Shown piece after piece: positions 39,271 to 60,820 of a stretch of DNA of 64,000 nt. The notes beneath the pieces are model-generated. The model was not told where the DNA came from. It was given only the letters and a program-made list of their open reading frames with translations, and made no database searches. Positions within the stretch are counted from its first letter, which is position 1, and each line of letters starts with the position of its first letter. The position numbers were made by a program, and so were the translations under genes. The DNA comes from Anaerolineales bacterium (lineage in GTDB: Bacteria > Chloroflexota > Anaerolineae > Anaerolineales > UBA11579): contig DATHZS010000073.1 of NCBI GenBank assembly GCA_035458505.1, forward strand, positions 31,165 to 95,164, read 5' to 3'.

Positions 39271-40758
39271 ATGGCACAACCCGACCCGAAGAACGCTGCT
39301 GCCGCGCAACCCTTAATGCATATCCCAGTTTACAAGATTGCTGATGATGAAAGTATCGAGACCATTCATCAAACCTCTTTGACAATCCTGCAAGAGATCG
39401 GAATGGCCTTTTATGATGAACAGGCAAGAGATCTTCTTGCCGCGCATGGTGCCCGGGTCGAAGGGGAAATGGTCTATTTTCCACCGGAAATGGTGGATGA
39501 ATTTATCAGCAAGGCTCCCGCAGAATTCACCCAGATCAGCCGCAACCCCTCCAGAGCCGTCAAGATTGGAGGACGAAACACCGTTTTTGCTCCGGTGTAT
39601 GGCCCTCCTTTTGTCTATGATCTGAACGATGGCAGAAGGCCTGCCACCATAGAAGATTTTGAAAATTTTGTCAAATTAGCCTATCTCAGCCCTTACATTC
39701 ACCATTCCGGCGGAACCATCGTAGAACCAAACAACTTGCCGGAAACCTCACGCCATCTCGATATGCTCATGGCTCATATCCTCTACAGTGACAAGCCCTT
39801 TATGGGTTCCGTCACCTCTTCGGAAAACGCCCGGGACAGTATTGAGATGGTTCGGATATTGTTCGGTGAAGAAGAAATCTCCAAAAACCCGGCATTACTT
39901 TCACTGATCAATATCAACAGCCCCCGGCAATTCGACAAAGGTATGTTAAGAGTATTGAGGGAATATGCGCAGGCCAACCAGGCCACGATCATCACGCCAT
40001 TTATCCTCGCGGGGTTGATGAGTCCGCCCACAATTGCGGGAGCGCTGGCCCAACAAAATGCAGAAGTTCTCGCAGGGATTGTCTATGCACAGGCTGTTAA
40101 ACCCGGTGTGCCTGTTGTCTATGGGTCTTTCACGACCACCATCGATATGCAGAACGGTGCTCTGGTTATGGGGTCACCTGAGAGTCAAATCGCGCTCCTG
40201 GTTAGTGCCAGCCTGGCCCGCAAATACCACCTGCCTTTCCGGAGCGGAGGGATGTTTGCCAGTTCCAAACTGACCGATGCCCAGGCCGCCTACGAATCGG
40301 TGATGACGATGCTGCCTGCCATACTTGGCCAGGTCAATTTTGTTCTCCATGCGGCTGGTTGGCTGGAAAACGGCATGACTGCCGGCTATGAAAAATTCCT
40401 CCTGGATTGTGATCTATTAGGGGCTTTCCACACCCTGATGCGGGGCCTGGACGTCTCACCGGATAAGCTGGCAGTGGATACGATCCGTGAGGTTCCTCCT
40501 GGCGGGCATTACCTTGAAACCGAGCACACCATCCGTCACTTCAGAACGGCGTTTTACCGTCCACAATTGATGGATTACGTCGAATATGATCAATGGGAAG
40601 CACAGGGGAGTTTAGATGCTGCGCAAAGGGCCAATCAACGCCTTCAATTCTTGCTATCCAACTACCAGGCCCCCGAACTGGATCTGGAGCGTAAGGAGAT
40701 GCTGGAAGAATTTGTCCTCAGGCGGAAACAGGAATTAGAAACAAAGGTATTCAGTTAG
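39271..40758 (+). CDS. MttB-family (trimethylamine methyltransferase superfamily) methyltransferase, non-Pyl, paralog 1
   Basis: 495 aa with no internal stop. N-terminal DESIETIHQTSLTILQEIGM and C-terminal VPPGGHYLETEHTIRHFRTAFYRPQLMDY match the family pattern shared by all six paralogs. Confidence 0.75.
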   Translation: MAQPDPKNAAAAQPLMHIPVYKIADDESIETIHQTSLTILQEIGMAFYDEQARDLLAAHGARVEGEMVYFPPEMVDEFISKAPAEFTQISRNPSRAVKIGGRNTVFAPVYGPPFVYDLNDGRRPATIEDFENFVKLAYLSPYIHHSGGTIVEPNNLPETSRHLDMLMAHILYSDKPFMGSVTSSENARDSIEMVRILFGEEEISKNPALLSLININSPRQFDKGMLRVLREYAQANQATIITPFILAGLMSPPTIAGALAQQNAEVLAGIVYAQAVKPGVPVVYGSFTTTIDMQNGALVMGSPESQIALLVSASLARKYHLPFRSGGMFASSKLTDAQAAYESVMTMLPAILGQVNFVLHAAGWLENGMTAGYEKFLLDCDLLGAFHTLMRGLDVSPDKLAVDTIREVPPGGHYLETEHTIRHFRTAFYRPQLMDYVEYDQWEAQGSLDAAQRANQRLQFLLSNYQAPELDLERKEMLEEFVLRRKQELETKVFS

Positions 40759-40768
40759 CCAGGAAAGT

Positions 40769-42754
40769 TTACAACTTGGTCGTTAACTCCCCAATTGCCG
40801 TCACACGCACACGAAAGCTCTCGGCACCATCTGGAAGGATTTCTGTTTCCAGTTCCACCGTTTCTGCGCCAGCCAGTCTGGCTTGCTGATCGGCAGCTTC
40901 ACCCAGCCACCCGGAAGCATATTCCAAGGCTTCTTGTCCTGTGCCAAATATTTTTCGCCCTTGTTCTGATTGAAGAATGTACCCAACGGGGTAGCGATTT
41001 CGGATTTTCGGGTACACCCAGGCATCCTGATGAACAATCACCTTGCCCGCCACCGCACCAACCGCATTTGCCACCTCATAATGCGGCGGCAACAGCAGTT
41101 CGGTGTGCAGCAGTTCAGCAACTCGCGGGAGTAAAATCCCCGCCGGTGCGCCAATCCCTACAATCGGCATTTTAAGCCCAAGCTCACTGCGCAAATAGGG
41201 GTTTTTCCGGTAAAGGTTTTCCTCAAAAAGCCAGGCCCCCAGGCTGCGAACAGGTGCATACTCCGGCATCCGGTCCACACCCTGTCCTGTGATATACCTG
41301 ACAACCTCTTCCACGATGAGTTCCGCGATCCTCTCTCTCATCTGATGGATCAAACCCTCAACGTCAATCTGCATCAGCAAGGCAAATTTTTCAGCAGCCA
41401 TCCGAGCAGCTTCAACTACCCAGGGCGAAAATTCCCCGCTCAAGTGAAAGAGATCAGAGGGGGTTAGCGCAGCCCGTCCAACAATTTCTTCCCTGATCAG
41501 GGTCCCGCTGTCCAACTGCATCGGATGCATCACTTCCATCCTTTTGAGGATCACAGGTAATGGAAGCGGACCATCCTCCAGGATGGCAAGAACTCGCATG
41601 CTTCGATCGTTGTTGATCAAACGTGTTGGTTTACGCAGCAAAAACCAGTATTCAAAGTGGTCGATCGTAGGCCGCTGGGCAAATATGGCGGTGGTGAGAG
41701 ATTTCATTTGGTCCAGGACTGCCGGGTACCGGGAAGCCAGATAAGCCAAAGGAACAACCCGTTCAGGACCAATCTTCAACTCATTTTCCATATCCAGGCG
41801 CAGGAAGCTGTCGCCACCCAGGCCAATCGAACGGACATCTGCTGCCCGTACTGCGGTGTGGAACTCACCCACCGTGGTACCTGAGTCATTGATCTTCAAC
41901 CTGCCACGATCGAGAAGAGCGATATCTGTCGTGGTACCGCCAATATCTATCACCAGCGCCTTATCTACACCTGCCAGGAATCTGGCACCAATCGCACTCG
42001 CCGCCGGTCCAGAATGGACTGTCTCCACCGGGTGAGCCTTGACCTGGCTGGTCTTCATCAGCGATCCATCGCTGTGTACAACCATCAAAGGAGCCTGCAC
42101 CCCCCGGGCAGAGAGCGCTCCTTCGATCGAGGAAATGAATTCCTGCAGGATCGACAGCAGCGAAGCATTCAATGCTGCCGTGGTAGCCCTTTGGATCGAA
42201 TTGAGCTTGCTCGAGAGCTGGTGCCCCATCACCACTGGCTTACCCGTCTCCCTTAGAATTTCCTCCGCTGCCGCCTCCTCATGGGAGATATTAAAGGGGC
42301 TGAAATACCCTGAGATTGAAAAGGCTTCAATCTCAGGGCTCACATCCCGGGCTGTCTTGATAATACCTGAGAGGTCTAAAGGTGCCTGGGCTTCTCCGGT
42401 GAGGGTATGCCCACCCTTAAAGTAATAGTATTTTGGAGTGGCAAAACTGCCCTCAAAGTGGAAGTGCCTTACCAGTTCAGGATCATACCCAAGCAGGAAC
42501 AAAGCGACCGGGCGGCCTTTCCCTTCGGCAATCGCATTCGTCGCCAATGTGGTTGAGATCGAAACCAGCTTGATTCGCTCGCGTTGCGCTGGGAGCAGCG
42601 CATCCAGTGCATTCAGGATCCCTTCAGAGAGGTCTGGTTTTGTTGTAAGTGTCTTAGTGGTTTTGATCACTTCCTGGGTTTTAATATCAAGCAGCACCCC
42701 GTCCGTATAAGTCCCCCCGGTATCAATTCCCAAGACAAAATTTTGGCCGCTCAT
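40769..42754 (-). CDS. Hydantoinase/oxoprolinase A-like ASKHA-fold protein, paralog 1
   Basis: VLGIDTGGTYTDGVLLD (hydantoinase N-terminal phosphate-1 motif), VIDIGGTTTDIALL, GLGGDSFLRLD...KIGPERV and C-terminal IVGIGAPAG...VANAVGAVAG. No HyuB partner is in the window. Confidence 0.65.
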   Translation of the reverse strand: MSGQNFVLGIDTGGTYTDGVLLDIKTQEVIKTTKTLTTKPDLSEGILNALDALLPAQRERIKLVSISTTLATNAIAEGKGRPVALFLLGYDPELVRHFHFEGSFATPKYYYFKGGHTLTGEAQAPLDLSGIIKTARDVSPEIEAFSISGYFSPFNISHEEAAAEEILRETGKPVVMGHQLSSKLNSIQRATTAALNASLLSILQEFISSIEGALSARGVQAPLMVVHSDGSLMKTSQVKAHPVETVHSGPAASAIGARFLAGVDKALVIDIGGTTTDIALLDRGRLKINDSGTTVGEFHTAVRAADVRSIGLGGDSFLRLDMENELKIGPERVVPLAYLASRYPAVLDQMKSLTTAIFAQRPTIDHFEYWFLLRKPTRLINNDRSMRVLAILEDGPLPLPVILKRMEVMHPMQLDSGTLIREEIVGRAALTPSDLFHLSGEFSPWVVEAARMAAEKFALLMQIDVEGLIHQMRERIAELIVEEVVRYITGQGVDRMPEYAPVRSLGAWLFEENLYRKNPYLRSELGLKMPIVGIGAPAGILLPRVAELLHTELLLPPHYEVANAVGAVAGKVIVHQDAWVYPKIRNRYPVGYILQSEQGRKIFGTGQEALEYASGWLGEAADQQARLAGAETVELETEILPDGAESFRVRVTAIGELTTKL

Positions 42755-42783
42755 GGTTGAATATAAATTTCCCCTGGGGGACC

Positions 42784-44373
42784 CTAACTGCCCTGCTCAT
42801 CATCTAAGAAGGGGAAACCCATGCTCTCAACATACAACATCACAAAATTCGGGTCCTGGTCAAGATCTACCTGCCGTGCTTTTTGCGCGATCCTCACGCC
42901 CAATTCAAACCCTTCCTTGGTTAAGAATTTGGCTGCGCCTAATCCGGCGCCATTGGCAACTGTCTCGACTTTGTTGCGTGGGATATTCGGGATCATGCCA
43001 ATCTGCATCGTGGCATGAATGTCTACCTGCCCGCCAAAAGAACCAGTCAGCAAGATTTTATCAAGGTCGGCGGGGGTGAGCCCCAACTGCTGCATGAGGG
43101 TGTCCACTGCGGCCCGGATAGCCCCTTTGGCCTTCTGGAGCTCCCTGATATCCCATTGGGTCAGGGCAATATGACCCTGATCATCCAGACGAATGGCAGG
43201 CGCTCCTCTTTCCCCTATGAAGATTCTATCCTTCATAATCGGAGGGTTCTGATTGATTCGCCCGCTCTTCTCAATCAGACCGTATTTTACAAGCTCATAG
43301 ACCGCCGATAGCAGCCCTGATCCTGTCAGGCCAATCGGTGGCTCGTCATTGATGGTATTAAAGACAAAGTCCTCTCCTTCAACCTTTGCCTGCACGACTG
43401 CACCATCGACTGCCCTGGACCCGCATGAGATATTGACACCTTCAAAAGCCGGCCCGGCCGCTGTCGAGGCAGTCAGGATCTGGCTGCCGTCTGTGACCAG
43501 CACCTCTCCATTTGTGCCAAGATCAATTGCCACCATCGGGCCGGAAGGCTGATCAAATCCAAACTCAACCAGACAAGCCAAAGCATCTGACCCCACGAAT
43601 CCGCCGATTAGCGGCGGCAGCGACACCTGCATGGATTCCGGGAAGATGTTGTCCATGATTGGCGAGGCATCATAGATCGGATCACTTTGGTAAGGTTGGA
43701 ACGGCATTGCTCCCAGGCTGTTGACCGGGAGCTTGGCGATCAAATGGTGCATCGCCACATTCCCCACAATCGTGACGCGTGTGATGCGGTCGTAGAACCG
43801 TTTTCCAAGTTTCAGTGAATCAACCGCCTGGTTGATCGAAGCCAGGGCCAGTTTATGCAAGCGTTCAGTGTTTTTCGGGTTATCCAAGACAGCCCCAACC
43901 CGGGAGATGACATCCGCTCCAAAGGTGGTTTGCTGGTTCAGGGTGGCCGCTCCGGCACAAACTTCGCCTGTCGTCAGGTTGGTCAGGAAGGCTGCCACCG
44001 TGGTGGAACCCAAATCGATTGCCAACCCCAGCGGATCGTCCGTCCGCTTATAGGATGAGGAGCCGCGAAAACTTTTATTCGAATAAACGACAATGTGCGA
44101 GAGAATGATGCGGGCATCGTCTACCGCTTTTGCGCGGCAGGCAAGGCGTGTGTTCAGCGCCAGTTCTCCCGCCGTGAGGTGTTCTTCCTCAACTGCATCC
44201 GGAGGAATACTGCCTTCTTCAATGATCACCTTGCATTTACCGCAAGTGCCGCGTCCGGCACACGGTTGTTCAATTGGCAAACCAGTTTCCTGGATGGCAT
44301 CACCAATCAAGGTATCCGGGGAAACGGTGATATTCTTTTCTTCAGTTCCGTAAACGATTGTTAATTTTGGCAT
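42784..44373 (-). CDS. RACo-type corrinoid reductive activase (N-terminal 2Fe-2S ferredoxin + ASKHA ATPase)
   Basis: Plant-type ferredoxin cysteines (CAGRGTCGKCKV...RLACRA). ASKHA motifs follow (LAIDLGSTTVAAFL, VAIDLGTNGEVLV). Its length of ~530 aa is typical of corrinoid activation/regeneration proteins. Confidence 0.75.
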   Translation of the reverse strand: MPKLTIVYGTEEKNITVSPDTLIGDAIQETGLPIEQPCAGRGTCGKCKVIIEEGSIPPDAVEEEHLTAGELALNTRLACRAKAVDDARIILSHIVVYSNKSFRGSSSYKRTDDPLGLAIDLGSTTVAAFLTNLTTGEVCAGAATLNQQTTFGADVISRVGAVLDNPKNTERLHKLALASINQAVDSLKLGKRFYDRITRVTIVGNVAMHHLIAKLPVNSLGAMPFQPYQSDPIYDASPIMDNIFPESMQVSLPPLIGGFVGSDALACLVEFGFDQPSGPMVAIDLGTNGEVLVTDGSQILTASTAAGPAFEGVNISCGSRAVDGAVVQAKVEGEDFVFNTINDEPPIGLTGSGLLSAVYELVKYGLIEKSGRINQNPPIMKDRIFIGERGAPAIRLDDQGHIALTQWDIRELQKAKGAIRAAVDTLMQQLGLTPADLDKILLTGSFGGQVDIHATMQIGMIPNIPRNKVETVANGAGLGAAKFLTKEGFELGVRIAQKARQVDLDQDPNFVMLYVESMGFPFLDDEQGS

Positions 44374-44391
44374 AATTGAGTTCCCAATTGA

Positions 44392-45036
44392 TTAGTTTTC
44401 GATCAGCTTTTGCACCTTGAGATAAAAGCCCTGGACATGCTCTTTCATTCTGATTTCTGCCGCCTGGCTGTCCCCGCTGCGGATACTCTCGACCAGCCTG
44501 ACGTGCTCATGCACTGCCGAAGAGAGGAATTCCAATTTGGGCAAGGCCAGGTACCACAAACGCTGAGAAAGCCCAAAATATTTTTCCAGCGAATGGGCCA
44601 GATAATGGTTTCCGGAGGCCTTCGCAATCGCCTGGTGGAGTTTATGATCAAGATCAAACCAGGCCTCCTTGTCATCTGCCTTGATTTTTGACTGCTCCAG
44701 AACAAGGGCATCCATCACCAATAAATGATCAGCCGTGGCTCTTTGCGCGGCCAAACCCGCTGCCTGACTTTCCAGCCCGACACGCACCTCACTCAACATC
44801 TTCAAATCCTTCGGATCCAAATCTGCCACATACAAGCCGCCTTGCCGAGAGACAACCACAAGCTGATCGTGGACCAGCAGTTTCAGCGCTTCCCGGATGG
44901 GGGTGCTTCCCAGTCCAAAGATAGAAGAAAGTTCAGATTCATTGATCGCTGCACCGGGTTTGAGGGCGAGCGTATTGATCTGCTCCCTGAGTAACTGGTA
45001 TGCTTCCTGAGTATCTACGCCAATAAGATCCATCAT
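44392..45036 (-). CDS. GntR family transcriptional regulator (FadR/FCD subfamily), copy 1
   Basis: Winged HTH region (LKPGAAINESELSSIFGLGSTPIREALKLLVHDQLVV) followed by a helical FCD-like domain. The start is set to ATG 45036, preceded by GAGAGGAAAAA; the track ORF is longer. Confidence 0.75.
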   Translation of the reverse strand: MMDLIGVDTQEAYQLLREQINTLALKPGAAINESELSSIFGLGSTPIREALKLLVHDQLVVVSRQGGLYVADLDPKDLKMLSEVRVGLESQAAGLAAQRATADHLLVMDALVLEQSKIKADDKEAWFDLDHKLHQAIAKASGNHYLAHSLEKYFGLSQRLWYLALPKLEFLSSAVHEHVRLVESIRSGDSQAAEIRMKEHVQGFYLKVQKLIEN

Positions 45037-45055
45037 TTTTTCCTCTCTGGGGCTA

Positions 45056-47050
45056 TTATCCCGACAGGCGCGGGTTGCCGAATGCCTTTGCCCGAATTCT
45101 GTAGGTATCGAGACCATCTGAGGTTTCTTCAACCACCACCTGAGGTTGATCGGCACCCGACCGAAGCGCCGCATTCAGCGCAATTTCTCGGCAGGTTTCC
45201 TTGGCAGTAATCAGCGCGGTCTGCAATTCCTCAAACTCCAGCCGCTTACTGCTGGTTTGCACATAATACCCCAGCACGTCCAGACCTGTTCTGTCCAGCT
45301 TCGGGTAAATCAGAATTTCTTCCTCGACCATAATGCTCCCGGCAATTGCACCAACCGCATTGGCCACCTGATAATGATTGGGTAATACCAGCTCTACGTG
45401 CAGAATTTCGGACACTTTTTGCAGGAACATGCTGGCCGGCCCACCAATGCCAATGACCGGATACGACAGGACAAAGTTTGTATTAAGGTGAGGATGGTCT
45501 CGGGTTGCTGCATTTTTAAAAAACCAGGAATCCGCCGAGGATTTTTCCTGCTCGGGCAAGGTTTGTCCAGTAAGGAATTCAATCGTTGCCTTCAGGATCT
45601 TCTCTGTGACAGTTTGCCAGATCATGGCCTGGACCTCTTCTGGTTCTTTGAACAGGTAGTGGCTGAATGCCTTCAGGGCCATCTCGGAAGTTTCTGCATC
45701 CCAGGCGACAAATCGCTCATCACAATGCAGCAGGTCCGTTGGAGTAAACCCGGCCTTACCAAAAAATTCCTGCCTTAATAATTCCTCCGCACCAAGCTGC
45801 GATGGATGGAAAACCGACATTTTTTTCAGCAGGTCTGGCAAAGCGTGGGGCCCGTTTTGCAAAATCTGCAACAATTGCTTGTGCTTTGGGTTCTTCGATA
45901 AATCTTCATCCCCCGGCTCCCGGATCAGATACCAGTACTCCAGCCAATCTGGGGAGGACTGCTCCCAGGTTCGGCGGATGAGGGAACGGATCTGGCTTTT
46001 GACGATCGGATGTTGTTCTGCCAGATATGCCAGCGGGACGACCCGCTCCGGGCCGACCACAATATTCCCGTCCCGATTGATGCGAATTTGGCTGTCTCCA
46101 CCTAATCCAATCGAGAGCAGGTCGGCTGCCTTGACAGAAGTTGCATACCCCCCTACCGAGGCTCCTTCCTCACTGATTGTTACCGCTCCATCCATAATCA
46201 AAGCCAGGTCGGTAGTTGTTCCTCCCACATCGACAACAAAAGCATTGTCTATCTGAGACAAGAATCTCCCACCGATGGCACTTGCGGCTGGCCCAGAATG
46301 GATCGTCTCCACAGGAGTTCGGGCAGCAAATTCATCGCTCATCAAGGTGCCATCTCCGCGGACCACCATCAGTGGTGCAACAATCTTGCGCTTTTCCATG
46401 GCACGCTTGACAGCAATAATGAACGTTTGCAGCACAGCCAGCAGCGAAGCGTTCAGGGCTGCTGTGGTGGCGCGCTCCACCGACCCAAGTTTGGTAGACA
46501 GTTGATGCCCAAGGACGATCGGCAGGTTGCATACTCCCGAAATCGCCTCATAAGCCCGGTTTTCATGCTCAGGATTCAGCGGGGAAAAATAACTGGAAAC
46601 TGCGATCGCATCCACCTCATGTTTGATCTGAGCAGTTTTTTCCAGGATGCCTTTAAGATCCAATGCTTGCTTTTCCTGTCCATACAGGTTATGACCACCC
46701 TGAAAATAATAATGAAAGGGGGTGGCAAATTGATGAGCCATCTTAAAGTTCTCGATCAATTCCCGGTCATACCCAACCAGGAACAAGGCCACCCGTTTAC
46801 CTTTCCCCTCTGCGATGGCATTCGTCGCCAGCGTGGTAGACACCGAGACCATTTTTATCAGGGAAGGATCTTCGATCTGGATCCCGGCAATCACATTCTC
46901 GATGCCAATTGCAAAATCGCGTTTGGTTGTCAGGCTTTTTTGCGTTGCAAGGACTTGATGAGAATCGTAGTCCAGGAGTACACCATCGGTGAATGTCCCC
47001 CCGGTATCAATCCCCAGCACAAGGTTCTGGTGCTTGTTTGTATCAGTCAA
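45056..47050 (-). CDS. Hydantoinase/oxoprolinase A-like ASKHA-fold protein, paralog 2
   Basis: It is collinear with paralog 1 along its full length (LVLGIDTGGTFTDGVLLD, STTLATNAIAEGKGKRVALFLVGYD, VVDVGGTTTDLALI, VANAVGAIAG). By eye the two share roughly half or more of their residues. Confidence 0.65.
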   Translation of the reverse strand: MTDTNKHQNLVLGIDTGGTFTDGVLLDYDSHQVLATQKSLTTKRDFAIGIENVIAGIQIEDPSLIKMVSVSTTLATNAIAEGKGKRVALFLVGYDRELIENFKMAHQFATPFHYYFQGGHNLYGQEKQALDLKGILEKTAQIKHEVDAIAVSSYFSPLNPEHENRAYEAISGVCNLPIVLGHQLSTKLGSVERATTAALNASLLAVLQTFIIAVKRAMEKRKIVAPLMVVRGDGTLMSDEFAARTPVETIHSGPAASAIGGRFLSQIDNAFVVDVGGTTTDLALIMDGAVTISEEGASVGGYATSVKAADLLSIGLGGDSQIRINRDGNIVVGPERVVPLAYLAEQHPIVKSQIRSLIRRTWEQSSPDWLEYWYLIREPGDEDLSKNPKHKQLLQILQNGPHALPDLLKKMSVFHPSQLGAEELLRQEFFGKAGFTPTDLLHCDERFVAWDAETSEMALKAFSHYLFKEPEEVQAMIWQTVTEKILKATIEFLTGQTLPEQEKSSADSWFFKNAATRDHPHLNTNFVLSYPVIGIGGPASMFLQKVSEILHVELVLPNHYQVANAVGAIAGSIMVEEEILIYPKLDRTGLDVLGYYVQTSSKRLEFEELQTALITAKETCREIALNAALRSGADQPQVVVEETSDGLDTYRIRAKAFGNPRLSG

Positions 47051-47202: not shown

Positions 47203-48705
47203 TTACCCGAACATCGAGTAATCGAGTTCTTCATCTTTGTGGCGTTCGTCAGCCAGTTCACAGACCCGGCGAAGTTCTTTGAACATGGCTTCGTCAATCA
47301 ATGGCTCTGTGTCTGCTTCAATCACTTCGATAACGCGCTCTCGTACCCGGTCACGATAGGCTTTGCGCCCGCTCATCTCCCAATTTTCGTACCCCTGGCG
47401 ATCGAGCAATTCAGGCTGCCAGATTTCAGTGCGGAAACGATCATACGTATGGTCGTGATCCAGGTAATGACCGCCCGGCCCAACTTCATCGATCACACCC
47501 AGCGCTTTGGATTCTCTCGTCACCGGGATCCCGCGCAAGATGCGTTTTAACATTGAGATGACCTCGTTGGACATCACCATCTGGTCCATCGAGCTGGTTA
47601 GACCCTGTTCCAGATACCCTACATCATGGATCATGTTGCCGCCCACCAAGGCAGAGGTGGCAATGTTCAAGGTTGCTTCCATGGCTGCCTGTTCATCAAA
47701 CATCTTGGCATCGGAACACCCTGCGGTTTCGTACATTGGGAGGCCAAGCCATTTGGTAATCTGGGTATAGGCTGCACTGAGCAAGGCCATCTCAGGTGAA
47801 CCGTAGCAGTACACAGTGGTCAGCATGTCCATGTTGGACATCAACCCACCGATGATCAGCGGGGCACCTGGGCGGCGCAGTTGGCTCAGGACGATCCCGA
47901 ACAGGCTCTCAGTCAGCGCCTGGACTGCCGTTCCAGCCAGCGTGGTTGGGGCGGTTGCGCCTGCCAGGGGGCAGGGAGTGTAGACAAACGGGATGTAGTT
48001 ATCTGTGGCAAAGAGCAGCTTTTGCACCACCTCTTCGGAGTGGCTGAGTGGGGAGACGGGTTCGATATACAGGGAAAAGATTGGACCTTTCTTCCATTCA
48101 TCAGCCCCACCCACCCGGATATGCGCCATTTCAAGCTGGTCCTTCAGGCCATCCAGGTCCACGGCGGTGATGTTGATCGGTTTTGTGGTGCCTTCAAGCA
48201 TGGCGAGGTACTGCCAGCGGTCGTAAGTGCCCACGGCAACATCCTGCACGATCCCCAGGGACATGTGGAAATCAATGTTTGGCATGGCCTGGGCCAGCTT
48301 AGCAAACTTTTTCACATCGTCATACATCGCACGCCGGCGCTGGCTCGTATACGGATCGATGGTAAAGGGAGTATCTGATCCGGCACCGAAGTAGATCGCA
48401 TTCTTATACAGTTCCATCTTGTATTTGCGATCCGGACCGATCACATCCACTTTACGCGGGACGGTCGCACGCGCCTTATCAATCATCCATGGGGGAATTT
48501 TGACCAGAGCGCTGTCTTCTTTCACATCCTCAACAATCGCCCCGCCATCATGCAGAATATCTACGCCTTCTTTTTCATACACTCGGATCCCGGTTTCATA
48601 CAGCACCCGCAACGCCGAGAAATAGATCGCTTCGATCTCGTCCTCAGAGAGTACTTCAAATGTTGGGGTGGCATTGACCAGGTAATTATTTCTCGTAACT
48701 TGCAT
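47203..48705 (-). CDS. MttB-family methyltransferase, non-Pyl, paralog 2
   Basis: SEDEIEAIYFSALRVLYETGI and VGPGGHYLDHDHTYDRFRTEIWQPELLDR. The start is set to ATG 48705 (GGAG 8 nt upstream, giving MQVTRNNY..., parallel to paralog 3's MRTNYRVN). The track ORF starts at GTG 48741. Confidence 0.75.
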   Translation of the reverse strand: MQVTRNNYLVNATPTFEVLSEDEIEAIYFSALRVLYETGIRVYEKEGVDILHDGGAIVEDVKEDSALVKIPPWMIDKARATVPRKVDVIGPDRKYKMELYKNAIYFGAGSDTPFTIDPYTSQRRRAMYDDVKKFAKLAQAMPNIDFHMSLGIVQDVAVGTYDRWQYLAMLEGTTKPINITAVDLDGLKDQLEMAHIRVGGADEWKKGPIFSLYIEPVSPLSHSEEVVQKLLFATDNYIPFVYTPCPLAGATAPTTLAGTAVQALTESLFGIVLSQLRRPGAPLIIGGLMSNMDMLTTVYCYGSPEMALLSAAYTQITKWLGLPMYETAGCSDAKMFDEQAAMEATLNIATSALVGGNMIHDVGYLEQGLTSSMDQMVMSNEVISMLKRILRGIPVTRESKALGVIDEVGPGGHYLDHDHTYDRFRTEIWQPELLDRQGYENWEMSGRKAYRDRVRERVIEVIEADTEPLIDEAMFKELRRVCELADERHKDEELDYSMFG

Positions 48706-48748
48706 AAGGTCATCTCCTATAGCATTTTCAATCACAGTCACCCTGCGG

Positions 48749-49456
48749 CTAGCGCAGGAAGGCTTCCTGGGTTAGTGTGCCACCAGGTGGCACCACCAGG
48801 AACTCGCTGTCTAATTGATCTAAGTTTGCCGCGACTTCGACAAGCCGCCGGACATACTGATCTGAACCAAGGATTTCTTCATACACCATTCCCCATCGCT
48901 CACAATACGCAGCAACCTCTTTCGCACTTGGGCGATAATTGAAAAGGTCAGCTTCCTGATGAGCGATGAAGGCTAATCGTTTGTAATTCTGGTATTGAGT
49001 ATCCATGATCCATTCAGCCTCTTCAGGACCATATTTCTCACTGATCTCATGGTACTCTTTCAACGGGTTGCTGCCGGATTCTAACCAGCCTTTGGTCAGG
49101 TAGTAGGTCCCCGGCTCACTGGTGAACTCCTGCATGTAGCGTGAATAGGAACCCAACAAAATCGCGATGCAATCATCTGTTCTGGGGATCAGCAAAGTAT
49201 GGTTTCTCGCTTTGATCCCGTTTAACCCGTTGCCGCATAACCCATAACCCAACACGATCAGACTCGGAGTATCGATCTCATCGATTCTGCTCTGGACTGT
49301 GAAAGCCAGCTTCGCCGGAACCCGGTGCAAGCCGTAGTCCAGGAAAGTGATCTGAGAAGTCATTTCTTTCGGCAAAAAGTGGTCGATCAACCCCTCAAAC
49401 ACTTTGCACGAGATCACTACTACCGGTAATTTATCGTGAGAAGTCATGGATGGCAT
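48749..49456 (-). CDS. DUF1638 domain protein
   Basis: VVVISCKVFEGLIDHFLP...ITFLDYGLHRVPAKL...LIVLGYGLCGNGL.G......LLIPRTDDCIAILLGS matches the DUF1638 pattern commonly found beside corrinoid methyltransferase genes. The start is ATG 49456 or 49447. Confidence 0.55.
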   Translation of the reverse strand: MPSMTSHDKLPVVVISCKVFEGLIDHFLPKEMTSQITFLDYGLHRVPAKLAFTVQSRIDEIDTPSLIVLGYGLCGNGLNGIKARNHTLLIPRTDDCIAILLGSYSRYMQEFTSEPGTYYLTKGWLESGSNPLKEYHEISEKYGPEEAEWIMDTQYQNYKRLAFIAHQEADLFNYRPSAKEVAAYCERWGMVYEEILGSDQYVRRLVEVAANLDQLDSEFLVVPPGGTLTQEAFLR

Positions 49457-49475: not shown

Positions 49476-50117
49476 TTAGGATTTCCCGAGAAGGGTTCTT
49501 GCCAATTCGGGGCCAGAGACAGCATTGGAGCCATAGCCATCTGCACCGATCCGCTGTGAAAACTCTTCATCCACGGGAGCTCCGCCCACAATCACCTTGA
49601 CTTTATCTCTCAGTCCGGCCTCTTCGATAGCTTTGATCGTATAGCCCATCGCTCGCATGGTGGTTGTCAGCATCGCAGACATCCCCACAATATCGGGTTG
49701 ATGCTCCTTGATCGCCTGGACAAACACTTCAGGGTCGACATTAAAGCCCAGGTCGATTACCTCAAAGCCAGAACCTTCACACATCATCCCCACCAGGTTT
49801 TTACCAATGTCATGCAGGTCGCCTTTTACCGTACCGAGCAAGATGGTGCCTACCCGGTCTGCTCCACTTTCAGCCAATAAGGGGCGCAGGATTTCCTGCC
49901 CGGCATGCATGGCCTCAGCAGACATCAGTACCTCGGGCACAAACATGTCGCCGCGTTTAAACCTGGCGCTTACTTCAGCCATCCCAACAACCAGGCCTTT
50001 ATTCAGGATCTCATTGGCAGAAAGTCCATCCTCCAGGGCTTTTTTGGTCAGTGCTTCGGCTTTTTCGGCATCTCCTTCTAAAACACATGTCGAAAGTTGT
50101 TCAAAAATTTCACTCAT
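49476..50117 (-). CDS. Corrinoid (cobalamin-binding) protein, MtbC/MttC/MtgC-like, copy 1
   Basis: N-terminal helical cap domain and a Rossmann B12-binding domain with DxHxxG (GTVKGDLHDIGKNLVGMMCEGSGFEVIDLG), about 213 aa. Confidence 0.85.
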   Translation of the reverse strand: MSEIFEQLSTCVLEGDAEKAEALTKKALEDGLSANEILNKGLVVGMAEVSARFKRGDMFVPEVLMSAEAMHAGQEILRPLLAESGADRVGTILLGTVKGDLHDIGKNLVGMMCEGSGFEVIDLGFNVDPEVFVQAIKEHQPDIVGMSAMLTTTMRAMGYTIKAIEEAGLRDKVKVIVGGAPVDEEFSQRIGADGYGSNAVSGPELARTLLGKS

Positions 50118-50133: not shown

Positions 50134-51594
50134 CTATTTATCCTTCACCCGATCTTCTGCCGCTTCCAAGACTTCCCGGATCACTTTCTCGGTCTCAGGT
50201 TTAATCGGAGATGGCTGATGAGTAGACAGAATTTCGTGCACCCGGCTGACGACCCGATCTCGCATGGGTTGTTTGCCCATCATCTCCCATTCTTCATAAT
50301 TTTTTCGGTCACACAGGTTCGGATACCAGAACTCAGTCTTATAATGGTTCCGGGTGTGCTGTTCTCGCAAGTAGTGCCCGTTGGGGCCAACATTGTTGAT
50401 GACCTCAACGGCCAGGGTATCTTCATTGACCTCGATACCGCGTGTAATTCTGCGGGAATAGCCGATCGATTCATCCATCATCGCCAATTGGAATACAGAA
50501 CCGGTCATTCCGCTCTCTGTATAGCCGACATCGTGGGTCAGGTCTCCTCCCGTCAGGGCAGAGAAGAATACAGACAAAGACCCCTCGATCACAGCCTGTT
50601 CATCCAGGCACTTCGAATCTGTGCAGCCACCAGTTTGCCACAGCGGCAGACCAACATAATGTGCCAATTCGGTCAGGCCTGCCATGAATAAAGACAACTC
50701 AGGCGCACCGTAGGACAAGATCATATTGCTCATGTCCATCACAGAGAGCACTCCGCCCATAATATATGGTAGTCCAGGCTGAATGGCCTGAGCGATTGTC
50801 AGCCCCATCCAGGACTCCGCAGCGGCCTGAATAATGATCCCAGCTCCTGTCACTGGGGCAGTTCCACCGGCAATGGGGCAAGGGGTAAAGATGAGTGGGA
50901 CTCGATGCCGAGCTGCAAATACCAGCTTATTCAGCGCATCCTGTGTGCTGACCAGCGGCGAGAGTGGTTCACAGTAGTGGACGTAATTCGGTCGGCGCTC
51001 GAATGCTTCTTGCCCGCCGGCCTCTGCCACAGCAATCTTGTGAATATCCAGCGAATCGTCATAATCGTATGACCAGGCTACGATGGGTTTGCTCGTATTG
51101 GGGAACATACCGGCAAATTCATAAGTCGCGCCAAGTTCGTGGTGGACATCGTTTACCGTACCCAGTGATTCACAAAAATCGATGTTGGGCAAAGCATCCA
51201 CCACCTTTGCCACGGTCGGGACATCGCTTTTTACATAGGGGCGCCGTTCCAGGGTGTCAACGTCAATGAAGTTTGGGCATGTCGGCCCTGGGCCAAAATG
51301 AGCCCGGCCAGGTCCTATATGAATATCGTGTTTCGGATTGCCGTCACGCGAGAATACCGTAAAGCTGCGTGGTGCCATGGACAAAGATTTCTTGACCAGG
51401 TACTGTGGGATTCGAACTCGAATGCCATCGACCCAAGCACCGGCTTTTTTCAGTATTTCTCTCGATTCTTCATGGTGAACATCCAGCCCAGTATATTCCA
51501 GCACATGAAAAACGCCATCTGCCAATTCCTGGAGTTGGTCGTCACTCAACATGCGGAACCTGACACCGGAGTTTACCCGATAGTTGGTTCTCAT
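50134..51594 (-). CDS. MttB-family methyltransferase, non-Pyl, paralog 3
   Basis: SDDQLQELADGVFHVLEYTGL and VGPNGHYLREQHTRNHYKTEFWYPNLCDR. 486 aa, uninterrupted. Confidence 0.75.
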   Translation of the reverse strand: MRTNYRVNSGVRFRMLSDDQLQELADGVFHVLEYTGLDVHHEESREILKKAGAWVDGIRVRIPQYLVKKSLSMAPRSFTVFSRDGNPKHDIHIGPGRAHFGPGPTCPNFIDVDTLERRPYVKSDVPTVAKVVDALPNIDFCESLGTVNDVHHELGATYEFAGMFPNTSKPIVAWSYDYDDSLDIHKIAVAEAGGQEAFERRPNYVHYCEPLSPLVSTQDALNKLVFAARHRVPLIFTPCPIAGGTAPVTGAGIIIQAAAESWMGLTIAQAIQPGLPYIMGGVLSVMDMSNMILSYGAPELSLFMAGLTELAHYVGLPLWQTGGCTDSKCLDEQAVIEGSLSVFFSALTGGDLTHDVGYTESGMTGSVFQLAMMDESIGYSRRITRGIEVNEDTLAVEVINNVGPNGHYLREQHTRNHYKTEFWYPNLCDRKNYEEWEMMGKQPMRDRVVSRVHEILSTHQPSPIKPETEKVIREVLEAAEDRVKDK

Positions 51595-51626: not shown

Positions 51627-52259
51627 TCAACTAACGAACTTGGTTGCCATTTCAGCAGCGGCTGCAGCATTGGATGCATAGCCATCTGCGCCAATCGTAT
51701 CTGCAAAATCTTTGGTCACCGGTGCACCGCCAACCATGATCTTCACCTTACCCCGTAATCCTGCTTCTTCCAATGCTTTGATCGTGCTCTCCATCGTACG
51801 CATGGTTGTTGTCAGCAAGGCGGACATGCCAACAATATCCGGATTGTGTTCCTTTACGGCCTCAACAAACGCTTCGGGGGCGATGTCTTTACCCAGATCC
51901 ACGACCTCAAAACCTGCGCCTTCGCACATCATTCCCACCAGATTCTTCCCGATATCGTGCAGGTCACCTTTGACAGTGCCGAGGATCACCTTCCCGACCA
52001 TCTTAACTCCGCTTTCCGAAAGGATCGGTTTCAGGATCTCCATAGAAGCGCTCATCGTCTTGGCAGAACGAAGCACTTCAGGCACAAACATATTCCCGGC
52101 TCTGAATTCTGCGCCAACATGATCCATGCCCGGCATTAAGCCCTGATCCAGAACGTCCTTGGCGGAGATCCCTTCCGCCAGCGCTTGCTGGGTCAGGTCT
52201 TTTATGTCATTCAGGTTTCCCTCAATAACACATGACGTCATCTTTGATAAAACGCTCAT
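51627..52259 (-). CDS. Corrinoid (cobalamin-binding) protein, copy 2
   Basis: GTVKGDLHDIGKNLVGMMCEGAGFEVVDLG. It is collinear with copy 1 throughout. Confidence 0.85.
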   Translation of the reverse strand: MSVLSKMTSCVIEGNLNDIKDLTQQALAEGISAKDVLDQGLMPGMDHVGAEFRAGNMFVPEVLRSAKTMSASMEILKPILSESGVKMVGKVILGTVKGDLHDIGKNLVGMMCEGAGFEVVDLGKDIAPEAFVEAVKEHNPDIVGMSALLTTTMRTMESTIKALEEAGLRGKVKIMVGGAPVTKDFADTIGADGYASNAAAAAEMATKFVS

Positions 52260-52280: not shown

Positions 52281-52922
52281 TTATACTAAATGCTCTTTAA
52301 TATTTTGCTGAAAGTTTGAAATGTGGGTTCGAATAGCTTTCTCAGCGCGCTGAGAATCACCAGCCTTGATCGCTGACACAATATCCACATGTTCACGGAT
52401 TCCTATCTCAATCAATTTCATCGTCCGCAACCCGTAGTACCAGATGCGTTGGGACATGAAGTAGTATCTCTTGAGGTCAGCTTGCAGATATTGGTTTTGG
52501 CTTGCTTCATAGCTTAAAAAATGAAACCCTCTATCGAGGTCCATCACCTCGTAGGGGGTTTGCAAACTGTTCAGATTTTGTTCGTCTACCATCGCCTCCA
52601 GCTGAGCGATCTGCTCTGGGGTGGCCCTGTTCGCAGCCAAACGTATCACCAATGCTTCCAATTCCATCCGCACTTCGTAAATATGGTTGATGTCCCTGAT
52701 CTCAATTGGCGTGACAAAGATTCCCCGTCGGGGGCTTACCGTTACAAATCGCTCCACCTGCAAGCGCTTGAGTGCTTCCCTGATCGGGGTCCGTCCAAGG
52801 CCAAGGGAATCCATCAGGACAGGTTCCTGGATCAACGAGCCTGGCTCCATCTCCGCCCGGATAATTTTCTCCAAGATCAGTTTATAAGCTCTATCAGCAT
52901 CCGTTAAGCTTGCTGTTTGCAT
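52281..52922 (-). CDS. GntR family transcriptional regulator (FCD subfamily), copy 2
   Basis: Winged HTH region (MEPGSLIQEPVLMDSLGLGRTPIREALKRLQVERFVTV) followed by a helical FCD domain. The start is ATG 52922; the track has a TTG at 52943. Confidence 0.75.
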   Translation of the reverse strand: MQTASLTDADRAYKLILEKIIRAEMEPGSLIQEPVLMDSLGLGRTPIREALKRLQVERFVTVSPRRGIFVTPIEIRDINHIYEVRMELEALVIRLAANRATPEQIAQLEAMVDEQNLNSLQTPYEVMDLDRGFHFLSYEASQNQYLQADLKRYYFMSQRIWYYGLRTMKLIEIGIREHVDIVSAIKAGDSQRAEKAIRTHISNFQQNIKEHLV

Positions 52923-52961
52923 ACTATCTCTGCCTTTTTCCAAAACGGTTTATTTCGATAA

Positions 52962-53834
52962 TCATCCCTCGTCATCAGCTTTTCGTTTTCGATAAGCTTG
53001 AATCCAATTCATTCCAAATTCATCCCTCCCCATGGACAGATCTGAAGCCAAAACAGCTGTGCTGATCTCCCTGACAAGGGGATTGGTGATTGGGCAGGTC
53101 ATTCCGGCATAGATTGCCAGGGCGATGAAGGTTGCATTGATGTATTTCCGGTCGGGCATGCCAAAGGAGATGTTGCTGGCACCCATCGTGATGTTCACCC
53201 CAAATTCTTTGACCACCATTCCAATGGTATCCAGGGCAATCTTACCCGCATTGCTGTCGGCACCCATCGTCAGGGCCAGTGGATCGATGATCACATCTTC
53301 GGGTCCAATTCCGAGTTTACCGGCTCGCTCGATGATCTTCGCGGCGACCTTCAAACGCTGCTCAGCTGTCTCGGGAATACCATCATCATCCATACACAGG
53401 CCAATCACGGCAGCCCCGTATTCTTTTGCCAGAGGGAGAACAGATGACAGTGATTTCTCCTCCCCATTTGTGGAATTGATCAACGCTTTGCCCTCATAAA
53501 TTGAAAGTGCTTCCTTCAAAGCAATCGGATCGGCAGTGTCAATACACAGCGGGATATCTGTCGTCTCCATCACAATCTGCATCACCTGTTTGAGCAGCGC
53601 CGGTTCATCTGCACCGGGAACGCCCGCATTCACGTCCAGCACTTTGGCTCCCGCAGCAACCTGGGAGGTGGCATCTTTTCTGACGATATCGAAATCGCCA
53701 GCCTGAAGTGCTGCCAGCACCAGTTTGCGGCCCGTCGGATTGATCCGCTCTCCGATGATAACTGTGGGGTTTCCCCGTTGAATCTCAACGGTTTGAGATT
53801 TTGATCTCAGAATAGTGGTTAGGTCTTTTGCCAT
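52962..53834 (-). CDS. Methyltetrahydrofolate:corrinoid methyltransferase (pterin-binding, DHPS-like barrel; MtgA/AcsE/MetH-pterin-domain-like)
   Basis: IIGERINPTGRK, VLDVNAG, PLCIDT, LINS and GASNISFG are the pterin-binding-domain hallmarks. Confidence 0.75.
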   Translation of the reverse strand: MAKDLTTILRSKSQTVEIQRGNPTVIIGERINPTGRKLVLAALQAGDFDIVRKDATSQVAAGAKVLDVNAGVPGADEPALLKQVMQIVMETTDIPLCIDTADPIALKEALSIYEGKALINSTNGEEKSLSSVLPLAKEYGAAVIGLCMDDDGIPETAEQRLKVAAKIIERAGKLGIGPEDVIIDPLALTMGADSNAGKIALDTIGMVVKEFGVNITMGASNISFGMPDRKYINATFIALAIYAGMTCPITNPLVREISTAVLASDLSMGRDEFGMNWIQAYRKRKADDEG

Positions 53835-54357
53835 GTTTCTCCTCTTTTTTAATTCAACTATTTCTTTCTTAGGTTTTTACCAGGTCGGTGTCTGGGGCCC
53901 TGACCAAGTAGGCTACAATCAATTACAGAATATTTAAAGGCATGCAGACTGCATACCCTCCTCAAAAGTGATTACACCAGCGCGCGAAACAGGGAAGCAC
54001 GAACACCCTGCCAGATCTGGGGGTTGCCAGATAAGATGCCAGCTGCGACAAATGGAAATTAAAAATCCTTGATACTCCAAACTCTGGCTCCTGAATTACT
54101 TGATCCATTGCACAAATCGCTTGATCAAACCATTCTCTCCGGCATTTTTATTTGAATTTTCCTTAATGGTGAACCGAATGTATTCCTGAACCAAAAAGAA
54201 CTGGTTCAAAATATATTTCTAATATATCAGGAAGCAACACCAGTGTCAACAAGTCAAAACTCAAGCGGAGAGATCAATAAATCGCAATCTATCTGCCGTG
54301 ATTTTTCGTGCATTCACGCGACGTTATTGCAAGTAAAACGAGTACCCGATTGGTTAA

Positions 54358-59354: not shown

Positions 59355-59379
59355 TCACAAAATTAAGAGGAGAACGTCT

Positions 59380-60819: not shown

Positions 60820-60820
60820 C

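Follow-up and report, generated by a model that had tools for sequence, protein, structure and literature searches.

What two proteins resembling the A subunits of hydantoinases and oxoprolinases do within an array of corrinoid methyltransferase genes is a question raised by a 64,000-nucleotide (nt) stretch of contig DATHZS010000073.1 from an Anaerolineales bacterium (assembly GCA_035458505.1), the whole of which is called the window here. A first-pass annotation had placed the two open reading frames (ORFs) at 40769-42754 (661 amino acids [aa]) and 45056-47050 (664 aa), and both, here HyuA-1 and HyuA-2, were confirmed by ORF calls and translation. They are collinear paralogs, as that annotation had proposed, with 46% identity over 656 collinear columns (BLASTP), and the motifs it had read, GIDTGGT(Y/F)TDGVLLD, D(I/V)GGTTTD, and VANAVGA, were present in the translations. 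Its spacing of 18 to 30 nt to the RACo and GntR genes was measured as 29, 18, and 19 nt, and its placement of the pair inside a methyltransferase operon held, with RACo, GntR/FCD, MttB, DUF1638, corrinoid protein, and pterin-binding MT2 genes flanking the paralogs. No gene for HyuB, the partner of true hydantoinases, was found in the window, again as stated: tblastn with a bona fide HyuB from Roseomonas (L077; L numbers denote related loci) gave a best E value of 2 over the 64 kb. Two explanations had been offered, (a) a chaperone or reactivase for corrinoid proteins and (b) the ATP-dependent opening of an N-methylated cyclic amide. The results below place HyuA-1 and HyuA-2 outside the canonical HyuA subunits, in a distinct HyuA-like subfamily that we name HyuAx, and they favor a reading close to explanation (a), to which we give about an even chance.

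Profile searches, which the first-pass annotation had suggested, identified Hydant_A_N (PF05378) in both paralogs with near-full profile coverage (E values of 2.5e-31 and 5.1e-32, Pfam) and Hydantoinase_A (PF01968) with E values of 1e-28 to 1e-32 over profile positions 1-145 of 291 only, plus a weak MutL/GlmL match (PF13941) confined to residues 8-69 (31.6 and 27.1 bits, cutoff 27). Past residue 335, neither protein had a Pfam match. The NCBIfam GlmL model NF040745 scored 34.5 bits (E value of 1e-8) compared to its cutoff of 475 bits, which is not the score of a full-length GlmL/MutL protein, and scores against the equivalog models were 93 to 95 bits for CapA (cutoff of 1000) and 66 to 82 and 44 to 46 bits for the ApcA/ApcC models (cutoffs of 1500 and 1250, respectively). 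RACo_C_ter (PF14574), Raco_middle, and Fe-S domains were all absent from HyuA-1 and HyuA-2 in the Pfam and NCBIfam searches, while the neighboring protein encoded at 42784-44373 has all of them. HyuA-1 was then modeled with AlphaFold2 from 12 homologs (pLDDT of 82, pTM of 0.80), and the model was compared to the PDB by Foldseek. The top tier of matches consisted solely of HyuA-type subunits (E values of 1e-27 to 5e-22, TM score of ~0.57), and the second tier was made up of generic ASKHA proteins, including DnaK, glycerol kinase, EutJ, and dehydratase activators. PDB searches by sequence and by fold for a close characterized relative returned canonical HyuA-type subunits only, at 14 to 18% identity.

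Motif conservation was scored over 86 nonredundant subfamily members from many phyla. Both window paralogs retain every conserved ASKHA and T-P-x-D position (Table 1), the GGDS motif (HyuA-1 residues 313-316) was likewise at least 93% conserved, and the adenosine region of HyuA-1 gave a local match to residues 453-480 of the caprolactamase alpha subunit (6yra). Because the ASKHA positions are kept in both paralogs and in at least 93% of the members, HyuA-1 and HyuA-2 are very probably functional nucleotide-binding proteins. Their motifs and second-tier Foldseek matches agree with the ASKHA superfamily, in which phosphate-1 (DxGGT), phosphate-2 (DxGGTxxD), and adenosine (GxG...NAxGA) motifs are set on a duplicated RNase-H-like fold.

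Sequence comparison to solved structures and to a canonical HyuA showed a departure in the stretch that reads GPESAGxxPGPxCY...PTxTDAN in the canonical protein. The span from GPE to TxTD is 100 residues in HyuA-1 (GPER 329-332 to TPSD 431-434) versus 22 in canonical HyuA. The first-pass annotation had asked whether a region of ~200 aa in this part of the protein was a novel insert; there is indeed a subfamily-specific insertion, but its net length is ~80 aa, and the rest is a diverged version of a canonical helical segment, which before the GG/adenosine motif (residues 533-567) is ~20 aa longer than its canonical counterpart. After the adenosine motif, only 94 aa follow in HyuA-1 versus ~206 aa in Roseomonas HyuA, which leaves a C-terminal domain of about half the size. 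The insertion-containing region (about residues 333-532) is present in both paralogs and recognizable by sequence, and it retrieved 213 clusters (50% identity, E value of 1e-3 or less), always within HyuA-like proteins and at the same position. When these 200 residues were modeled alone (pLDDT of 87), Foldseek found nothing significant in the PDB, the weak matches being to MarR and MetAP2/Ebp1 winged helices (best E value of 0.38). It is possible, if unproven, that the insertion holds a winged-helix-like module.

HyuAx proteins were accordingly defined as HyuA-like proteins of about 640 to 690 aa with the insertion, a TPxD motif, and no HyuB. Relatives were gathered in two sets. For the close set, one genome per GTDB species was scanned with an alignment that combined the paralogs with homologs, which yielded 73 loci with proteins 44 to 74% identical, from Anaerolineales, other Chloroflexota, and a few Desulfobacterales. 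The distant set was obtained with a degenerate DNA pattern encoding P[VI]ETxxSGPAAS (at least 120 loci) and with an alignment of archaeal members (at least 80 further loci, with flanks of ±10 kb). When tblastn and blastp were run with the bona fide HyuB probe, no HyuB was detected within ±10 kb or in the same 8-kb block at ~270 loci, so that the pairing with a HyuB gene elsewhere that the first-pass annotation had considered was not seen in the neighborhoods searched. The sole canonical pair retrieved, at L077, served as a control and has overlapping hyuB and hyuA genes. That HyuA-1 and HyuA-2 are true hydantoinase or oxoprolinase A subunits whose HyuB is encoded elsewhere in the genome is therefore, in our judgment, very improbable. 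Hydant_A_N and Hydantoinase_A do score above the Pfam gathering thresholds, but only half of the Hydantoinase_A profile is matched, the NCBIfam scores are ~10-fold under the cutoff (93 versus 1000 bits for CapA), the key loops and the C-terminal domain differ, and the subfamily stands on a long branch apart from canonical HyuA.

Genomic company of HyuAx

ORFs in the related loci were called mechanically and assigned by BLAST with the window proteins as probes, and synteny was counted in samples of 80 to 120 loci among the matches listed, over spans of 8 to 22 kb. The order CoP-MttB-CoP-DUF1638-MttB-HyuA2-GntR-RACo-(EamA)-HyuA1 (CoP, corrinoid protein) recurred in dozens of Anaerolineales and Desulfobacterales genomes, and a Logan contig with independent Pfam annotation had the identical order, with an EamA transporter gene between RACo and the second HyuA gene. 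Two ortholog groups were distinguished, the HyuA2 type, which lies after MttB and before GntR and was seen in 43 loci, and the HyuA1 type, which follows RACo with or without an intervening EamA gene. Within the 73 closest loci, 89 of 97 HyuAx genes were located within 6 kb of an MttB, CoP, RACo, DUF1638, or MtrH gene, and RACo was the neighbor of 71 of 93 HyuA-like genes.

Full-length relatives with the insertion, at ~30 to 40% identity, were found in Alpha-, Beta-, and Gammaproteobacteria, Desulfobacterota, Bacillota, Actinomycetota, Armatimonadota, Spirochaetales, Acidobacteria, Methanosarcinales, and Methanomassiliicoccales. The frequency with which a corrinoid methyl-transfer gene lay within 6 kb varied widely among these groups: 2/3 in Actinomycetota, 4/7 in Desulfobacterota, 7/14 in Bacillota, 5/13 in Chloroflexota outside the close set, 14/40 in methanogens (an underestimate, because the probes miss MtaB), 4/19 in other Pseudomonadota, 0/6 in Armatimonadota, and 0/53 in Alphaproteobacteria. 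The association with corrinoid methyltransferase genes, which the first-pass annotation had drawn from a single locus, thus extends far beyond it in both bacteria and archaea and is widespread in anaerobes, but it is not exclusive, since none of the sampled alphaproteobacterial members was clustered. The HyuAx genes of Rhizobiales and Rhodobacterales were monocistronic, with synteny at the level of lineage only (glcB and a P450 gene versus a queG-like gene and msrA/msrB), and the S. meliloti protein was 35% identical over its full length.

Among distant members (~33 to 40% identity), the clustered HyuAx genes accompanied three unrelated classes of methyltransferase, the MttB, MtaB, and URO-D types. 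MttB was followed by HyuAx, DUF1638, and MtrH in Halanaerobiaceae, Syntrophomonadaceae, and other Bacillota, and a Coriobacteriia genome had the order URO-D, CoP, URO-D, HyuAx, RACo, DUF1638. Among the methanogens, Methanolobus had MtaA followed by HyuAx, convergent with MtaB-MtaC-CobW-RamA; Methanosarcina had MtaC, MtaB, an AceP-like gene, a CDF gene, two HyuAx genes, and a FilR1/Msr-type regulator; and Methanomassiliicoccus had a tandem HyuAx pair near MtaA-like and CoP genes. In these same three genera, CobW/COG0523-type GTPase genes adjoined MtaC, RamA, and HyuAx (the region of L201:15059-16180, L212:15059-16180(-), L177:2385-3083(+), L203, and L218), and the GTPase may be a further cofactor- or metal-chaperone component. 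In Methanolobus bombayensis (L205), three HyuA-like paralogs were encoded within 10 kb, beside corrinoid protein genes and a split MttB gene that is presumably interrupted by pyrrolysine.

A simple neighbor-joining tree, calculated without support values, placed the whole subfamily on a long branch apart from canonical HyuA. The HyuA1 and HyuA2 types formed sister clades in Chloroflexota (plus Desulfobacterales), independent duplications appeared in Methanomassiliicoccales and Methanosarcinales, and a mostly unclustered proteobacterial clade was nested inside the subfamily. Paralog pairs thus originated separately in Chloroflexota, Methanomassiliicoccales, and Methanosarcinales, which would suit a protein that dimerizes. 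Another, separate subfamily of HyuA-like proteins, ~550 to 570 aa long, with hosts including Phascolarctobacterium, Desulfovirgula, and Syntrophaceticus, aligned to residues 6-350 only (L080, L122, L123, L125, L135, L142, L148, L155, and L181). In all 9 of these loci there was a neighboring ORF of ~440 aa, HDAC/arginase-fold-like by eye, and the two may form a different two-gene module.

Several relatives of HyuAx were longer than the rest. Those of 930 to 980 aa are DUF1638-HyuAx fusions, in which DUF1638 occupies about residues 30-220, ahead of Hydant_A_N and the first half of Hydantoinase_A (Pfam). Such fusions were found in at least five genomes, from Armatimonadota (L189 and L272), a deltaproteobacterium (L096), Desulfotignum (L126), and Spirochaetales (L248). 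The fusion was verified by Pfam in three representative clusters (P0151, P0164, and P0194), and nine more clusters (50% identity) match in length, with the insertion shifted accordingly. P0085 (963 aa), a single database entry, bears the annotation of an EamA-HyuA fusion; of the relatives in this size range, those that were examined with Pfam contained DUF1638 instead. A PDB sequence search returned no solved DUF1638 structure. An acidobacterial member of 866 aa (L274:9551-12151(+) and L088, which are one contig) carries an N-terminal CxxCxxCxxxCP ferredoxin-like domain (Fer4, E value of 3e-4), a layout that is reminiscent of the Fe-S plus ASKHA architecture of RACo and RamA. As for DUF1638 itself, genetic data from Phaeobacter inhibens show that B12-dependent methionine synthesis requires both it and a RamA-like protein (bioRxiv 10.1101/192971, Price et al.), and in Ruegeria pomeroyi its induction accompanies that of MtgBCD (PMC12478193).

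The first-pass annotation had not known this family as a component of MttB-type systems, but its members had already been noticed in such clusters, without interpretation (PMC9768040; PMC11619418). Our literature searches found passing mentions and no paper that assigns the subfamily a function. In "Ca. Formimonas warabiya", an "N-methylhydantoinase A" is encoded in a cluster of nine genes, and glycine betaine strongly induced all nine of their products (Holland et al. 2022, PMC9768040); this homolog was thus coinduced with MttB, CoP, and MTII proteins, and the synteny figure of the same paper shows "HydA" in Sporomusa and Frackibacter. In M. acetivorans, the "predicted hydantoinases MA4395 and MA4396" are located between mtaCB2 and the msr regulators (PMC11619418). 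MA4396 acquired a frameshift in one population evolved for switching between methanol and trimethylamine (TMA), and the purified protein was used as a nonbinding control in electrophoretic mobility shift assays (EMSA) (bioRxiv 10.1101/2025.05.05.652248). The fold, the superfamily, and, in passing, the presence of these proteins in such clusters are therefore already known. The HyuB-less subfamily with its distinctive insertion, its association with corrinoid methyl transfer across domains, and the DUF1638 fusion appear to be undescribed so far.

A proposed helper of corrinoid proteins and its alternatives

Methylotrophic methanogenesis and acetogenesis depend on corrinoid methyl transfer, and so do the turnover of glycine betaine and other quaternary amines in sediments, oceans, and the gut and the B12-dependent route by which many marine bacteria make methionine. 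The machinery known to maintain corrinoid proteins is RamA/RACo, and ASKHA proteins have precedents as helpers of B12 enzymes in RACo/RamA, GlmL, DdrA/GdrA, and EutA. What the clustered HyuAx contexts share is a corrinoid protein and its maintenance genes (RACo/RamA and DUF1638) rather than any particular substrate or methyltransferase, and this favors an accessory role. The DUF1638 fusion, which is a physical tie, the conserved ATP site, and the absence of HyuB together favor an accessory role that depends on ATP. We consider it an evenly balanced proposition that HyuAx is an accessory protein that depends on ATP and acts alongside DUF1638 and RACo in maintaining corrinoid proteins in their active state. 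This lies near explanation (a) of the first-pass annotation, which is the better supported of its two, by genomic inference; the ATPase activity, the heterodimer, its target, and the step that is assisted are putative. HyuA-1 and HyuA-2 would form a heterodimer, as HyuA-type subunits dimerize, that would use its conserved ASKHA site to bind and hydrolyze ATP or to become transiently autophosphorylated. The heterodimer and the DUF1638 protein would act jointly on the shared component, either the corrinoid protein or its cobamide, and would prime the inactive Co(II) protein for reduction by the adjoining RACo or else load or exchange the cofactor.

Several points weigh against this proposal. In vitro reconstitutions of MttB, MtgB, and MtaB work with RamA/RACo or Ti(III) citrate alone, so that neither methyl transfer nor activation has a strict requirement for HyuAx. 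Genomic inference is what ties every member to a corrinoid-helper role, and with 0/53 alphaproteobacterial and 0/6 armatimonadotal members clustered, the link in those groups consists of the fusion and of known copresence in a few species. The fitness screen of P. inhibens yielded five methionine-synthesis genes, with no HyuA-like gene among them (bioRxiv 10.1101/192971). Numerous MttB paralogs in many Chloroflexota raise the background chance of proximity, and the frequent overlap of an EamA transporter gene with the HyuA1-type gene could instead be a sign that the substrate is a small molecule.

This last point leads to an alternative that we regard as unlikely, in which HyuAx would use ATP, in the manner of a kinase or a ligase, to act on a small molecule that corrinoid proteins require, or would be a cofactor-loading chaperone. 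Candidate molecules are cobamide precursors, lower ligands, and salvaged corrinoids, which the adjacent or fused EamA protein would import. In 38/73 loci (e.g., L001:9079-10008), an EamA (DMT) gene separates RACo from the HyuA1-type gene, whose start it overlaps, and P0085 carries the EamA-HyuA annotation noted above. The CobW/COG0523 GTPases, which are metal or cofactor chaperones, are encoded beside HyuAx and MtaC/RamA in methanogens, HyuA-type proteins are the phosphoryl-transfer subunits of their enzymes, and the stand-alone, housekeeping-like genes of aerobes would also fit a cofactor-related role. However, no EamA gene is present in the window, genes for the biosynthesis or salvage of cobamides did not recur as neighbors in the related loci, and the DUF1638 fusion and the adjacency of RACo point to an activation module.

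Explanation (b) of the first-pass annotation, the opening of an N-methylated cyclic amide, belongs to a broader alternative in which HyuAx phosphorylates or ring-opens the methylated substrate or the demethylated product, with DUF1638 as a nonhomologous replacement for HyuB. The nearest relatives by structure serve as catalytic subunits in ATP-dependent lactamases and carboxylases, DUF1638 is fused or adjacent as a second protein in the way that HyuB is to HyuA, the gene lies directly downstream of MttB in 43 loci, and the homolog in "Ca. Formimonas warabiya" was coinduced on glycine betaine (PMC9768040). Conversely, HyuAx genes also occur in MtaB (methanol) and URO-D-type contexts, the substrates of which have no amide or ring, and HyuB was found neither in the window nor beside ~270 relatives. 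In addition, the SAGxPGPxCY loop has been lost and the C-terminal domain is truncated by half, aerobes carry stand-alone copies beside unrelated genes, and the defect linked to DUF1638 in P. inhibens concerns methionine synthase and not catabolism. The opening of a cyclic amide is disfavored by these results, and substrate or product processing as a whole seems to us quite improbable.

Also improbable, to a similar degree, is a regulatory role in which HyuAx, as an ASKHA sensor of a ligand or of ATP comparable to the ROK-family repressors, modulates the GntR/FCD or Msr-type regulators or methyltransferase expression through the winged-helix-like insertion. A GntR/FCD gene follows the HyuA2-type gene for 49/102 HyuA-like genes of the closest set, the Methanosarcina pair is followed by a FilR1/Msr-type regulator, the weak structural matches of the insertion are to MarR-type winged helices, and the MA4396 frameshift arose in a screen for faster switching from methanol to TMA (bioRxiv 10.1101/2025.05.05.652248). 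That frameshift, however, co-occurred with a causal mutation in MA2561 and may be a passenger, and purified MA4396 was the nonbinding EMSA control in the same study. The winged-helix similarity is insignificant (best E value of 0.38, probability below 0.2), the putative recognition helix is acidic (consensus LIxEEIIG), and neither the DUF1638 fusion nor clusters free of regulators (e.g., L244 and L227) fit such a role.

"N-methylhydantoinase A" is a misannotation of HyuAx that could falsely predict hydantoin or oxoproline metabolism in Anaerolineae and methanogens.

The array in the window

HyuA-1 and HyuA-2 belong to an array of 11 codirectional genes on the minus strand, which in the order of transcription encode MT2, GntR, a corrinoid protein, MttB, a corrinoid protein, DUF1638, MttB, HyuA-2, GntR/FCD, RACo, and HyuA-1 (Table 1). 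The gap from MttB to HyuA-2 is 152 nt, that from the HyuA-2 stop to GntR is 19 nt if ATG 45036 is the GntR start (the longest GntR ORF would overlap), and 18 and 29 nt separate the GntR stop from the RACo start and the RACo stop from the HyuA-1 start, respectively. No strong terminator-like site was found within the array. The closest protein was a metagenome sequence at 98% identity, and the closest species genome was at 74%. The corrinoid protein encoded at 49476-50117 served as a probe for related loci.

Table 1. Coordinates of the HyuAx genes, their motifs, and the neighboring features of the window
Feature	Position	Strand	Description
HyuA-1	40769..42754	-	ATG, 661 aa; HyuA-like ASKHA protein of the HyuA1-type group; follows RACo
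Phosphate-1 motif of HyuA-1, GIDTGGTYTD	42701..42730	-	ASKHA; residues 9-18; G9, D11, G13, G14, T15, T17, and D18 at least 93% conserved
Phosphate-2 motif of HyuA-1, DIGGTTTD	41924..41947	-	ASKHA; residues 270-277; D270, G272, G273, T274, and D277 at least 93% conserved; invariant in both paralogs
Subfamily-specific insertion of HyuA-1	41465..41758	-	residues 333-430; net ~80 aa, helical, replaces SAGxPGPxCY loop
TPSD of HyuA-1	41453..41464	-	residues 431-434; counterpart of canonical TxTDAN; T431, P432, and D434 at least 93% conserved
Adenosine region of HyuA-1, IVGIGAPAG...EVANAVGA	41054..41164	-	ASKHA; residues 531-567; G535, N563, A564, and G566 at least 93% conserved
HyuA-2	45056..47050	-	TTG start, 664 aa; HyuA2-type group; after MttB, before GntR
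RACo-type reductive activase	42784..44373	-	Fer2 (2Fe-2S) + Raco_middle + RACo_C_ter ASKHA (Pfam, NCBIfam)
GntR/FCD regulator	44392..45036	-	Pfam GntR + FCD; likely ATG at 45036, longest ORF to 45174
MttB-family (non-Pyl) methyltransferase	47203..48741	-	Pfam MTTB, E value of 3e-100; directly upstream of HyuA-2
DUF1638 protein	48749..49456	-	PF07796, E value of 6.5e-40; likely ATG at 49456, longest ORF to 49591
Corrinoid protein (B12-binding)	49476..50117	-	from translation; L001 homolog has B12-binding_2 + B12-binding
MttB-family methyltransferase	50134..51594	-	NCBIfam TIGR02369, E value of 9e-113, under equivalog cutoff
Corrinoid protein, second copy	51627..52259	-	from translation; L001 homologs have B12-binding Pfam domains
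Second GntR-type regulator	52281..52943	-	from translation; position kept in related loci
Pterin-binding (MtrH/AcsE-like) methyl-corrinoid:tetrahydrofolate methyltransferase (MT2)	52962..53834	-	Pfam Pterin_bind
Promoter-like site TTGACA-17-TATATT	54221..54249	-	11/12 matches, consensus match only; upstream of the 11-gene array
Convergent MttB-family gene	39271..40758	+	Pfam MTTB, E value of 4e-201; ends 10 nt from HyuA-1 stop

The surroundings of the array resemble a methyltransferase island, with five MttB-family genes within 22 kb (39271-40758(+), 47203-48741(-), 50134-51594(-), 57116-58555(-), and 59251-60819(+)), all of them uninterrupted (non-pyrrolysine type) and below the TIGR02369 equivalog cutoff where tested. 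A gene for a MetV-like (DUF5981) plus MTHFR fusion, at 37687-39162(+), adjoins the convergent MttB gene, both converging on the array, and ties the island to methyl-tetrahydrofolate oxidation or reduction. Between MttB genes there is also a gene for a Cys/Met-metabolism pyridoxal phosphate enzyme, at 55815-57056(-), which recurs in Anaerolineales loci (L001, L017, L025, and L066) and could be a clue to the class of substrate. The gene at 60722-63094(+), which encodes a molybdopterin-binding subunit of the xanthine dehydrogenase/aldehyde oxidase family, overlaps the end of the fifth MttB ORF by ~100 nt, and its start codon probably needs revising.

Comparison with known systems

The HyuA-type subunits with which HyuAx was compared are those of N-methylhydantoinase (9h03), CapA (6yra), acetone carboxylase beta (5svc and 5m45), and acetophenone carboxylase alpha/gamma (5l9w). 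HyuAx shares with them the fold, Hydant_A_N, the first half of Hydantoinase_A, the ASKHA motifs, TxTD, and the GG/adenosine motif, and the use of two HyuA-like paralogs in the window recalls the alpha and gamma subunits of acetophenone carboxylase. Unlike these subunits, HyuAx lacks a HyuB partner, has the ~80-aa insertion in place of the SAGxPGPxCY loop and a half-size C-terminal domain, is only 14 to 18% identical to them, and has a genomic context of corrinoid methyl transfer rather than of lactam or ketone catabolism.

With RACo, RamA, and RACE, HyuAx has in common an ASKHA fold, a putative dependence on ATP, and a location in corrinoid methyltransferase operons of both Bacteria and Archaea, but it has no Fe-S domain (except for the rare acidobacterial Fer4-like fusion), RACo_C_ter, or Raco_middle. 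It co-occurs with RACo instead of replacing it, which implies a nonredundant step. GlmL/MutL, DdrA/GdrA, and EutA are likewise ATP-dependent ASKHA proteins encoded beside B12 enzymes, and the N-terminal ~60 residues of HyuA-1 match the MutL/GlmL profiles, a similarity that covers the shared phosphate-1 region only. Unlike these reactivases of adenosylcobalamin enzymes, HyuAx is a protein of 660 aa with a HyuA N-terminal domain, and the clients suggested by its context are methyl-transfer corrinoid proteins rather than radical adenosylcobalamin enzymes. The alphaproteobacterial split methionine synthase/MtgBCD systems, which use DUF1638 and a RamA-like protein, have DUF1638 in common with the window operon, and no HyuA-like partner was reported for them in bioRxiv 10.1101/192971 or PMC12478193.

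A final comparison is with the methyltransferase activation protein (MAP) of Methanosarcina barkeri, which is known as a purified activity from the work of Daas et al. in 1996 and is said to be a chromophore-free heterodimer that was never sequenced. Its subunits are reportedly of about 60 and 30 kDa, sizes that would fit HyuAx plus DUF1638 better than two HyuAx proteins. HyuAx, alone or with DUF1638, is a plausible candidate for MAP, for its ASKHA fold is free of Fe-S, and the phosphate-2 threonines of DIGGTTTD sit at the position at which Hsp70 is autophosphorylated. HyuAx pairs lie beside mtaCB in Methanosarcina (L203) and in M. acetivorans, and HyuAx is also present in the mta cluster of Methanolobus, which is evidence of proximity only. 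MAP phosphorylates itself with ATP, the bound phosphate is stable to acid, and in this phosphorylated form MAP activates MT1, the corrinoid methyltransferase for methanol (PMC5007285); a 2016 FEMS review noted that nothing had been published on MAP since and that the question was unsolved (PMC5007285). It is conceivable, although we think it rather unlikely, that HyuAx and DUF1638 together are an Fe-S-free MAP, a universal ATP-dependent autophosphorylating module that would prime or reload Co(II) corrinoid proteins alongside RamA/RACo. As part of the same tentative claim, such a module would range across methanogens, acetogens, Chloroflexota, and marine Alphaproteobacteria. Since HyuAx travels with corrinoid systems across two domains of life, it offers concrete candidates both for the mechanism of DUF1638 and for the MAP gene, and the identification with MAP, if true, would give a gene to an ATP-dependent activity that has been without an assigned one for about 30 years.

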